A DNA stretch of 64,000 nt, taken from a virus. Lineage: Duplodnaviria; Caudoviricetes. The stretch's first letter is position 1; the number at the start of each line of letters is the position of its first letter. The DNA is taken from the IMG/VR virus record IMGVR_UViG_3300031949_001696; one strand, 5' to 3'. This document shows positions 11,286 to 14,799 of this stretch, piece after piece. The position numbers and the translations under genes were made by a program. The notes under the pieces are model-generated. The model searched no databases. It worked only from the letters and a program-made list of their open reading frames with translations, and was not told the origin of the DNA.

Positions 11286-11704
11286 TCGCGCGCCGTCTTG
11301 CTGCCGACTAAATTTCGACATCGTCAACGCACGGCGCGTCGAGCCAGTGCCGAACGATCCGCCGGCCGGCGATCCGCTCGACGACGGCGGGACGCCACTT
11401 GTCGTCACCGCGCTTGCACATGCCGCACGCGATCTTCGGGTTGCCGAACAGGCGCCCGCGGCACTTGTCGCAGCCGAGCCCTTTGCGCTTCGCGAACCAC
11501 CAGACCGATTGTTCGCAGACGCAGTCGATGTTGCCAGTGGGATGGATGCGCGCGAGGTGATCGCGGCGGCGCCGCGCTCCCTTACGGTACGTACGATCTC
11601 GACGAGCCTCTCGCTTCTTCACGTGAACCTCCAAGCGCGCCCGCGAGGCGCGCGATAGTGAGGTCCAAGCTCGTCACGTTTTTACTGTACCAGTTTCGAT
11701 TGAG

Positions 11705-11780
11705 AGAGCCCGGCGGGAGTCGAACCCGCGACCAACGATTTCATCACTTCGCTGCTCTAACCAACCTGAGCTACGGGCCC
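11705..11780 (-). tRNA. tRNA-like gene, Ile-type body, aberrant anticodon loop containing GAT
   Basis: GGGCCCG-TA-GCTCAGGTTGGTTAGAGC; T arm GCGGG-TTCGACT-CCCGC; anticodon arm GCGA-AGTGATGAAA-TCGT. Confidence 0.75.
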
Positions 11781-11852
11781 GAACGGGTCGCGCTTCGCCA
11801 CGTCTGAGGTGGCGACGAAGGCGATGGATTCCGAGCCCACCACAAGCGCTAG

Positions 11853-11926
11853 CGGATCCCACCGGAGTCGAACCGGCCATGGCGAGGTCATTATTCTCGC
11901 TGCTTCTCCTCGAAGACTTGAGATCC
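11853..11926 (-). tRNA. tRNA-like gene, identity undetermined, 9-nt anticodon loop
   Basis: Acceptor GGATCTC/GGGATCC, arm GCGAG-AATAATGAC-CTCGC, T arm GCCGG-TTCGACT-CCGGT. Confidence 0.65.
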
Positions 11927-11931
11927 ATACG

Positions 11932-12007
11932 TGCAGGGAGGTGGGATCGAACCGACCGACCTCCGGCCATGTGATGTACCGGTGCTCTACCACTGAGCTA
12001 TTCCTGC
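11932..12007 (-). tRNA. tRNA-like gene, Gly-like body, 10-nt anticodon loop
   Basis: GCAGGAA-TA-GCTCAGTGGTAGAGC; arm CCGGT-ACATCACATG-GCCGG; TTCGATC loop. Confidence 0.7.
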
Positions 12008-13003: not shown

Positions 13004-13089
13004 GGAAGGTGAGGTGGGGGCTGGTCCCCACGCCCGTCTCGAAAACGGGATGCCCCGAAAGGGGCCGGGTTCAATTCCTACTCCTTCCG
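13004..13089 (+). tRNA. tRNA-Ser(CGA), tRNA-Sec-like/allo-tRNA (8/4-type) fold
   Basis: 6-bp D stem TGGGGG-CTGG-TCCCCA, CCCGT-CTCGAAA-ACGGG, long V arm, short T stem, G73. Confidence 0.8.
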
Positions 13090-13100
13090 CTGCGAAAAAT

Positions 13101-13185
13101 GGAAGGCGAGTCCGAGCAGGTGCTGGAGGCCGGTTGCTAACCGGTTAGTCGCGTGAGCGACCGGGTTCGAGTCCCCCGTCTTCCG
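13101..13185 (+). tRNA. tRNA-Ser(GCT), 8/4-type fold
   Basis: 8-bp acceptor GGAAGGCG/CGTCTTCC, GCCGG-TTGCTAA-CCGGT, V arm GTCGC-GTGA-GCGAC, G73. Confidence 0.82.
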
Positions 13186-13194
13186 CGGAGGAAA

Positions 13195-13882
13195 ATGATC
13201 ATGAACGCTTCATCCGATTCCGTTGTCGTCGAGGTCCGTGCTGCGGAAGGCGGCAACGATGCCAAGCTCCTCGTACTCGAGCAAGTGAAGATCTACGTGC
13301 GGCTCTGCGGCCGGAGGTCTCTTTGACGTCGAACTCGTAGAGGATCGCCCCGGCATCGCCGTGCTCTGCGTCTCGGGCCGCGGCGCCACGGCGCTGTTCG
13401 CGGGCGAAGCGGGCGGGCACCGATGGCAACGCGTGCCCGAGACTGAGAAGCGCGGTCGTGTACATACGAGCACGATCACCGTCGCCGTGCTCGAAGAGCC
13501 GCGTCACGTCGACCAGACGATCCGGCCCGAGGACGTCGACGTCGAGACGATGCGCGGATCAGGTGCCGGCGGCCAGCACCGAAACAAGACCGACTCGGCC
13601 GTGCGCGCGCGCCACCGGCCGACCGGCATCGAGGTCCGCTGCGAGGCGGAACGATCGCAGCATCGGAATCGTGAGCTGGCGATGCTCGTGCTCTCCGCGC
13701 GTGTCGCGGAGCTGACGCGATCGGCCGTGCAGGGAGCGCGCGACGCTGATCGACGACAGCAGTTAGGATCGGGGATGCGCGGCTGCAAGATAAGAACGAT
13801 TCGTGTGCAGCACGACGTAGTGGTAGACCATCAGACAGGTCGACAGTGGGCGCTGAAACAATACCTTCGCGGCGACTGGTGA
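13195..13882 (+). CDS. Class I peptide release factor-like protein (PxT and GGQ motifs, lacks domain 1), join(13195..13323,13325..13882) by +1 frameshift
   Basis: Frame 0 VEVRAAEGG.DA; frame +1 GEAGGHRWQRVPETEKRGRVHTST and SGAGGQHRNKTDSAVR; GGAGG-TCT-CTT-TGA-C at 13313-13327. Confidence 0.92.
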
Positions 13883-14799
13883 TGGACGACGATGAGATGG
13901 CGAGTGCTTACCTTTCCGGCGCGTCTCTACCGCAGATCGCAGCTGTCAACGGACGTCCTTACGACTTCGCACGTCGTCACGTATTGCGAGCCGGCGCTAC
14001 GCCGCGGAGTTCCGCGGAAGGTGTCCATCTCGCCAAGCGCGTACAGCAGGACGTTGAGGTGACAGAAGAGCTGACCGAACTGATCGACGGCCTTCTTCTT
14101 GGTGACGGCCATCTAGAAGCTACGCAGTGGAGCGCGCGTCTGACACTTGGACAAACAGCAGCCCATCTTCCATGGCTACAGCAAGTACACGGCATTCTTA
14201 CGCGGAGTGGCGTTGCGTCGACAATACAAGTTCACGGGCGCGCAGGTCAGATGAGCGTGCACGGAAAGCGATTTCGCCGTCGACGATCACGCGCGTTGCG
14301 TACAGCGCGCTATGTGTTTCTGAAAGCAGTGCATGCGCGTTGGTATCCGAATGGCGTAAAGCGGGTACCGCAAGATGTTCGCCTAACGCCGCTTTCGATC
14401 GCGCATTGGTATTTTGGCGACGGTACTGTTGGGTGTCGTGGTTACCACGCAAAATTCTGCACTGATGGGTTCTCGGCGGCTGATGTGCGCAGGCTCATGC
14501 AGGCGCTCACGGAGCGGTTTGCATGGGCGCCTGTTCTTGAGCAACGAAACCGAATCTTACTTTGCAAGACGTGCGATCGAGCTTCTCTCGTCAAAATGCT
14601 ACGAAGCTCACAGGTCCCGCGCTGCTTCCGTCACAAGCTTCGGCTGCGACTTCAAGATCGTAGATTCGTCGTTATAGGAACCAAGGAAGAGCGCCTGCGC
14701 GACTTGCGCCTGCGCGAGCTGAGCTACGGCAGGATCGCGATGGAATTGAAATTGTCGAAGAGTGGCGTCTTCAGCGCCTGTCAGCGTTTAGGCGTTTAG
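13882..14799 (+). CDS. Double-motif LAGLIDADG homing endonuclease with terminal HTHs
   Basis: LIDGLLLGDG and IAHWYFGDG, WYPNGVKRVP, FCTDGF. Confidence 0.88.
   Translation: MDDDEMASAYLSGASLPQIAAVNGRPYDFARRHVLRAGATPRSSAEGVHLAKRVQQDVEVTEELTELIDGLLLGDGHLEATQWSARLTLGQTAAHLPWLQQVHGILTRSGVASTIQVHGRAGQMSVHGKRFRRRRSRALRTARYVFLKAVHARWYPNGVKRVPQDVRLTPLSIAHWYFGDGTVGCRGYHAKFCTDGFSAADVRRLMQALTERFAWAPVLEQRNRILLCKTCDRASLVKMLRSSQVPRCFRHKLRLRLQDRRFVVIGTKEERLRDLRLRELSYGRIAMELKLSKSGVFSACQRLGV

Follow-up and report, generated by a model that had tools for sequence, protein, structure and literature searches.

An RF2-type frameshift sensor was found to have been re-invented in a truncated release factor of the RF1 lineage, carried by huge phages and a few myxobacteria, and the device is real and conserved. 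It was identified on 64,000 nucleotides of viral DNA from a giant soil phage (the whole stretch that was analysed, hereafter the window), where a class-I release factor gene is divided over two reading frames at a cassette of the kind known from prfB, the RF2 gene whose +1 frameshift is a textbook translational sensor. The product of this gene is quite probably a shortened RF1-type class-I release factor consisting of domains 2-4 only, the completion of which depends solely on the programmed +1 frameshift.

A release factor gene in two reading frames

The class-I release factor gene extends from position 13195 (or 13201) to position 13882 of the window and encodes a protein of 226-228 aa. The features of the gene and of its immediate surroundings are given below, with the roles at the shift site being those predicted.

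13004..13088, + strand: tRNA-Ser-like gene with anticodon CGA and a long variable arm (Rfam, 41 bits, tRNA-Sec model of the tRNA clan)
13101..13184, + strand: tRNA-Ser-like gene with anticodon GCU (Rfam, 43 bits), ending about 10 nt before the release factor start codon
13187..13191, + strand: initiation RBS GGAGG (from the sequence), 3 nt before ATG 13195 and 9 nt before ATG 13201
13195..13323, + strand: frame-0 part (by translation), 43 codons from ATG 13195 or 41 from ATG 13201, the last codon being Leu CTT
13313..13317, + strand: internal SD-like GGAGG (from the sequence), with spacer TCT, 3 nt before CTT
13321..13327, + strand: shift site CTT TGA C, with a P-site Leu codon, an A-site stop in weak context, a slip to UUU and GAC as the next codon
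13325..13882, + strand: +1-frame part (by translation), 185 codons plus the stop TGA at 13880-13882
13882..14799, + strand: LAGLIDADG homing endonuclease (Pfam LAGLIDADG_2, 4e-21; PHROG 11023)

The frame-0 product, from ATG 13195 or ATG 13201, is MIMNASSDSVVVEVRAAEGGNDAKLLVLEQVKIYVRLCGRRSL, with its C-terminal end reading VVVEVRAAEGGNDAKLLVLEQVKIYVRLCGRRSL. This part encodes the first strand of release factor domain 2 and helix alpha-5 (EVRAAEGGNDAKLLV...), was found to be homologous to residues 83-121 of T. maritima RF1 and was matched in relatives at 42-90% identity using tblastn. The +1 frame from 13325 reads DVELVEDRPG...GGHRWQRVPETEKRGRVHTST...GSGAGGQHRNK... and holds the remainder of domain 2, the PET tripeptide (codons 13436-13444), HTST, domain 3 with GGQ (codons 13568-13576) and domain 4. 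RF1 homology is present on both sides of the junction and in both frames, with no homology gap between them, and one four-base step at CTTT gives the joined product of 228 aa (P0003). Nearly all relatives possess a frame-0 part of 34-41 codons, none of them with a domain 1, and this favours ATG 13201, with its 41 codons ahead of the shift site, as the putative start.

The whole cassette, GGAGG-TCT-CTT-TGA-C (13313-13327), has the make-up of a prfB-type site, namely a stop directly after CUU with continuation in the +1 frame, an SD-like element 3 nt upstream and a C after the stop. As a 15-nt pattern (GGAGGNNNCTTTGAC) it occurs once in the window, compared to 0.01 occurrences expected from shuffles. 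No RNA structure was detected at or downstream of the shift site (z = -0.04).

Type and fold of the factor

Searches against Pfam matched the C-terminal half of PCRF (profile positions 99-194 of 194) and RF-1 (4e-27). With the NCBIfam models, scores of 212 bits for prfA, 131 bits for prfB and 98 bits for prfH were obtained, each under its own cut-off (212 and 209 bits versus 400 and 423 for the prfA equivalogs TIGR00019 and NF001859, and 98.5 bits versus 166.65 for prfH, TIGR03072), because about 105 N-terminal residues are missing. Domain 1 is absent, with the prfA alignment beginning at profile position 103 of 347, and none can be encoded upstream, since the tRNA-Ser gene ends at 13184, about 10 nt before ATG 13195.

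The decoding motifs of the window factor are of RF1 type, namely WQRVPETE (Q-R-V-P-E-T) and RGRVHTST (H-T-S-T), and are accompanied by GGQ. Across the family of relatives described below, the corresponding motifs are xQR, PPT/PPN/PET/SPT and H/Q-T-S-T, with GGQ being invariant. The positions that discriminate between RF1 and RF2 are all RF1-type (Gln before R-V-P and Thr in H-T-S-T), and the first position of the tripeptide is Pro in most members. A third of the family was found to possess PPN in place of PxT, with PPN and SPT equally common at TGA and TAG sites, and the Glu of alpha-5 is replaced by Asp throughout. The family also has signatures of its own, these being HRW-Q-R, GGxD, GGQHRNK and RGDKRRT.

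An AF2 model (ma43ca51a52ae) was obtained for a contiguous natural relative, P0037, which is 63% identical and was used in place of P0003. This model has a pLDDT of 88 and aligns to ribosome-bound RF1 with a TM of 0.85 and an rmsd of 2.9 A. Domain 3 of the P0037 model takes the extended, ribosome-bound arrangement, with a TM of about 0.55 to the compact free RF1/RF2 crystals.

A passage in Baranov et al. 2006 (PMC1586002, citing Mora et al. 2003) reports domain 1 to be dispensable for codon-specific release and required for interaction with RF3. With this reported role of domain 1 and the RF1-type residues of the family, an RF3-independent UAA/UAG factor is to be expected, and, judging by its motifs, the product most likely terminates at UAA and UAG without recycling by RF3.

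Conservation of the shift site among relatives

Relatives were collected from IMG/VR, JGI metagenomes and GTDB species genomes, and P0003 was mapped onto them. A +1 break at the same codon was found in 104 loci, representing 89 distinct proteins of 216-235 aa and reaching down to about 46% identity, with no second defect in the 104 loci kept in the analysis. These originate from soil, sediment, marine and other metagenomes, in addition to cultured Myxococcota. CTT followed by T is invariant at this codon in all 89 distinct frameshifted relatives, with the stop being TGA in 63, TAG in 22 and TAA in four. A C follows the stop in 75 of them (84%), and GGAGG or GGAG is situated 2-3 nt upstream of CTT in 70. 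The residues encoded at the SD-like element differ (RRSL versus LERL), indicating that the constraint there acts on the RNA.

The original prediction, made from the window alone, described a prfB cassette joining the two halves of a factor of about 228 aa with the RF1-type PET motif and GGQ and without domain 1. The cassette and its +1 continuation read as it had described them, and the length, the motifs and the missing domain agree with P0003 and with the start of the prfA alignment. It had also named beforehand two outcomes that would speak against it, homologues without the site and a frame break due to misassembly. The homologues keep the site, with CTT-T-stop present in 89/89, and the break is not an assembly error: the contig likely to be from the source sample (depth about 27) has no indel at the shift site, and a diverged 727-nt contig from an independent sediment sample, with 77 differences over 680 nt, agrees with it, no difference or indel being listed at 13321-13327 in a comparison table that holds the best-supported differences only.

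The window's own clade of seven members has almost identical flanks, with TGA at the shift site in five and TAG in two. That close relatives exchange TGA, TAG and TAA in this way suggests selection for a weak stop after CUU-U, rather than for a particular stop. No protein column was found to co-vary with stop type, except for the codon that overlaps the stop (D versus S); a single variable column, situated in the helical stretch that separates domain 3 from domain 4, had an MI of 0.30, barely over the shuffle limit of 0.27. GC content did not differ between TGA loci and TAG loci.

The SD-like element is absent in 16 of the 89 relatives. Clades without it (L011, L051, L079, L085 and L110, from marine and other low-GC loci, and L065, L067, L071 and L074) were observed to carry conserved nonamers of their own, CGYTACTGT and CGGAACCAT. 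These clades may possess another stimulator, or their hosts may not use SD pairing.

Three other members, L093 (2657-2659), L125 (3034-3036) and L228 (about 2650), have no frameshift at the usual codon and contain an in-frame TGA around 10 codons later, in the contexts ERG TGA CTG, SRS TGA CTG and GHG TGA ACG, where other members have W, F or I. Situated on a 283-kb contig, a Rhodospirillales MAG contig and a Gammaproteobacteria MAG scaffold, these genes look as if they are gated by UGA readthrough, possibly as Trp. L228 also shows a frame change in a G4C6 run, which is maybe an assembly error. In L041 (2501-3103, on a 461-kb contig), homology was found only from HRWQR on, with the upstream part being unrelated in all frames, and this copy has either decayed or been truncated further.

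Phylogeny and separate origin of the cassette

A tree was inferred with a quick maximum-likelihood search, with SH-aLRT as the only support measure and RF2 as the outgroup. The short proteins group together as a single clade (support 99, stem 0.63), next to full-length RF1. All frameshifted genes share a further clade (support 95), within which contiguous forms are also nested, and the contiguous low-GC members L073 and L087 are the first branches of the family. The DNA of these two members reads TTC GAC and TTT AAA at the site, with no stop and no SD. At least four changes between the frameshifted and contiguous states and at least seven for the TAG label were counted, these being minimum estimates from starred branches. 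A scan of viral contigs with the contiguous member P0110 as query gave no match.

The shift site is located after helix alpha-5 in domain 2 and aligns at approximately residue 160 of E. coli RF2 (residue 10 of P0003 aligns with residue 128 of that protein). The frameshift site of prfB lies at around codon 26, in domain 1, and the cassette of Nannocystis prfB (CGGAGGCAT CTT TGA C) was found 31 codons into the frame-0 stretch, which starts at ATG in strain ST9. By this position test the two sites are >130 codons apart and not homologous in place, and the cassette in domain 2 is thus separate in origin, being analogous rather than inherited.

The prfB genes of Nannocystis and Nannocystaceae (L195, L196 and L197) have a string, CGGAGGCAT CTT TGA C (..LRRHL*), that is nearly the same as that of the window, CGGAGGTCT CTT TGA C (..GRRSL*). 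This near-identity could be due to convergence on a functional consensus or to a small sequence transfer.

Carriers and genomic neighbourhood

The gene is carried by IMG/VR contigs of 83-618 kb and by many metagenome contigs. Chromosomal carriers were identified among cultured Myxococcota, namely Nannocystis exedens DSM 71, N. radixulma, Nannocystaceae ST9 and Minicystis rosea DSM 24000, with the 6.6-kb locus of N. radixulma aligning nearly end to end to that of N. exedens. Full prfA and prfB genes are also present in N. exedens, N. radixulma and ST9 (the three genomes searched). Presence in bacteria is sporadic, with the gene found in two out of 201 genomes sampled from the Nannocystis phylum. 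Since the Nannocystis carriers use the classic cassette in their own prfB, the ribosomes of such hosts are expected to perform the slip.

The window itself contains a tail-fibre-like PHROG hit, the LAGLIDADG endonuclease, Pth2 and mostly orphan ORFs. The ATG of the LAGLIDADG gene overlaps the stop of the release factor gene (TGATG). It did not recur beside relatives among the loci, indicating that it is probably a recent mobile insertion; the endonuclease is a neighbour and not part of the device.

Both tRNA-Ser-like genes upstream of the release factor gene were missed by ARAGORN and fall under the Rfam gathering score, with their best match being tRNA-Sec-like. Processing of the tRNA 3' end may leave an mRNA with a very short 5' leader bearing the SD. 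Two tRNA-like genes with enlarged anticodon loops were also observed on the minus strand at 11704-12007, where ARAGORN reports one tRNA-like gene with a four-base anticodon (gatg) and Rfam reports anticodon-loop inserts of 10 and 12 nt.

Of the 89 loci, 36 have a tRNA gene within 600 nt of the release factor gene; in most cases the tRNA gene immediately precedes it in the same orientation, often with 12-17 nt between the two, an arrangement also seen in the window. tRNA-Lys genes (CTT and TTT anticodons) make up 56 of the 180 flanking tRNAs and are often present as tandem copies directly upstream of the release factor gene. No conserved protein-coding neighbour and no RtcB were found in the 89 loci, the largest neighbour cluster occurring in 11/89, and Pth2 is nearby in four loci only. 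The translation-damage island envisaged in the original prediction is accordingly upheld with respect to the frequent tRNA genes and not with respect to Pth2. The gene belongs to phage tRNA arrays, rather than to a fixed repair island or a code-change module.

A link to suppressor tRNAs or to recoding was ruled out, as a stop anticodon (CUA) occurs in just one of the 180 flanking tRNAs and stop use in a crude ORF set of the window (TGA 59, TAG 20, TAA 8) is ordinary for its GC content.

Proposed mechanism

The slip on the ribosome and its tuning by the level of RF2 are proposed here by analogy with prfB, and the role of the factor in infection is likewise a proposal. With tRNA-Leu on CUU in the P site, the weak stop UGA-C would enter the A site, and GGAGG, situated 3 nt upstream, would pair with the anti-SD of 16S rRNA. 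The P-site tRNA would then slip to UUU and GAC would be read next, with termination in place of the slip yielding only a peptide of 41-43 aa. The share of ribosomes that slip would be set by the speed of stop recognition, which at UGA would be that of host RF2. The factor would be co-expressed with the phage tRNA array, as one component of a translation toolkit belonging to the phage itself.

Host RF2, and not the factor itself, is most likely what reads the gate in this phage, because the stop changes freely, even among the closest relatives, without a change in decoding residues. The proposal that the factor is made when UGA termination is perturbed can be retained insofar as its yield would rise when RF2 is slow, and this by analogy with prfB only. 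As the motifs predict reading of UAA and UAG, autoregulation at its own site would not be expected at TGA; it is plausible for the 22 TAG and four TAA relatives. Two points count against an RF2 gate: there is no obvious logic in gating an RF1-type factor by RF2, and the drift between TGA, TAG and TAA, even in the window clade, would switch the host factor that does the gating. This drift would be a better fit to a generic weak-stop gate or to a factor that reads all stops.

Alternative explanations

Were the factor an all-stop reader, its stop would be predicted to drift freely between TGA, TAG and TAA without any residue co-varying, as is observed; the factor would then recognize every stop, including that of its own shift site, giving true negative autoregulation like that of prfB or of the eRF1-type gene of Mimivirus. 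Eukaryotic and archaeal class-I release factors read all three stops. The Mimivirus and Megavirus factor genes carry CUU UAG C and CUU UAA C (PMC3521657), the prfB product cannot read UAG and TAG has not been found at the prfB site (PMC12421855), and the present family often has PPN or SPT instead of PxT, together with Asp at the alpha-5 Glu. However, every position separating RF1 from RF2 is of RF1 type (Q before R-V-P, Thr in H-T-S-T and mostly Pro first in the tripeptide), and PPN and SPT are no rarer at TGA than at TAG sites, and a self-sensing loop is considered unlikely. The earlier suggestion that the factor reads UGA despite its PxT was set aside, given that RF1-type positions are found throughout and that the stop varies without a co-varying residue. 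The wider proposition, that all three stops are read by the factor and are hence interchangeable at its own shift site, making the family a domain-1-less, RF3-independent and fully autoregulated factor of bacterial type, is likewise given little weight, if slightly more. Whether or not it holds, the TAG members would represent the counterpart of the prfB loop for RF1 and UAG that has long been missing. The slip might instead act as a fixed attenuator, by which the yield of a factor whose excess is harmful is kept low and constant, with no release factor being sensed. Any stop would serve for this purpose, and the SD-like element is missing from some clades. Contiguous forms have emerged on several occasions, implying that the gate is dispensable, and over-produced RF2, and more mildly RF1, impaired the growth of B. 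subtilis (PMC12421855). Yet a weak start codon or promoter would suffice to the same end, and the invariant CTT-T-stop, with C following in 84% over a wide divergence, points to selection on kinetic competition, making attenuation of this kind decidedly improbable.

The lack of domain 1 is a feature shared with PrfH (RFH), a domain-1-less release factor homologue paired with RtcB2. A factor of that sort, freeing ribosomes stalled by RNA damage as part of a phage RNA-repair and tRNA set, would also suit the sporadic presence in bacteria (2/201 sampled genomes of the Nannocystis phylum) and the Pth2 and many tRNA genes nearby in this window. It is nevertheless very unlikely, and the original suggestion of a rescue factor was not sustained: the prfH score is 98 bits versus a cut-off of 167, with prfA at 212, and there is neither RtcB nor another conserved partner in the neighbourhood (largest cluster 11/89, Pth2 4/89). 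The RF1 decoding residues are also conserved, whereas the stop-codon-contacting regions of PrfH are described in a passage of PMC1586002 as differing from those of RF1 and RF2. Least probable, to the point of being negligible, is a broken gene, an assembly error or a pair of genes (a 43-aa peptide and a truncated factor from GTG 13361). Gene callers do split the gene in this way, with a 173-aa call (P0004) in the window and many calls of 171-207 aa for relatives in databases, the practical consequence being that genes of this family are currently truncated to 171-207 aa. However, the identical break and heptamer occur in 89 distinct genes with both halves conserved at the protein level, the 173-aa form would lose helix alpha-5 and two strands of domain 2, and independent contigs agree on the site. 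The reading as an assembly error or dead gene is refuted, as far as comparative data allow. A gate on termination capacity, whether general or specific to one release factor, is the best reading, ahead of a fixed attenuator and of an all-stop reader.

Significance and comparison with known systems

The same cassette, having arisen separately at another position in a gene of the RF1 lineage and having been kept in about a hundred diverged genes, may be regarded as a portable termination sensor. Natural TGA, TAG and TAA versions are on hand for testing what the cassette senses, and the question raised here, namely what role a domain-1-less and presumably RF3-independent RF1 has for a huge phage, can be tested in cultured strains that carry the gene (Nannocystis exedens DSM 71 and Minicystis rosea DSM 24000). 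Full-text literature searches returned no description of a short, frameshifted family of RF1 type, and a counterpart of the prfB frameshift in the RF1 gene, at UAG, has been stated to be "also unknown" (PMC5009743).

The factor shares with canonical RF1, its best-scoring family, domains 2-4, the PxT-type loop, the Q and HTST positions, GGQ and the fold (TM 0.85). It differs in having no domain 1, in forming a separate, long-stemmed clade with its own signatures and in its frameshift. Like PrfH, it is without domain 1, keeps GGQ and is sporadic; it is set apart from PrfH by a score under the prfH cut-off, by decoding residues of RF1 type, by the lack of an RtcB partner and by its frameshift.

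In work on huge and recoded phages (Al-Shayeb et al. 2020, PMC7162821; Borges et al., preprint 10.1101/2021.08.26.457843), full-length RF1 and RF2 genes have been described as modules for a change of code, together with suppressor tRNAs, and a frameshift is mentioned in neither report. Both these and the present gene are phage-borne class-I factors located among tRNA and other translation genes, but the window is without sign of recoding.

With bacterial prfB are shared the heptamer, the SD-like element, the 3-nt spacing, the +1 direction and the nature of the gene as one for a class-I release factor, and repeated loss in some lineages is common to both (PMC12421855 for prfB). Here the gene is of the RF1 lineage and the site is in domain 2, at residue 43 of 228, rather than at about codon 26 in domain 1. 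All three stops occur at the site in the present family, whereas a survey of 12,753 genomes (2025) did not detect TAG in this position in prfB and describes programmed frameshifting as demonstrated for prfB and not for prfA (PMC12421855). Where the stop is TGA, the codon that gates the product is presumably one that it cannot read.

The eRF1-type genes Mimivirus R726 and Megavirus mg280 combine UGA-C readthrough with a CUU UAG C or CUU UAA C frameshift (Jeudy et al. 2012, PMC3521657), and an in-frame TGA likewise takes the place of the frameshift in a few members of the present family. The fold of the Mimivirus factor is unrelated, being eukaryotic/archaeal; its host is a eukaryote, and its single gene has two recoding events. 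The factor described here is of bacterial RF1 type and is by its motifs not an all-stop reader. In both cases, a virus-encoded termination factor is gated by a prfB-like heptamer, the stop of which varies between relatives.
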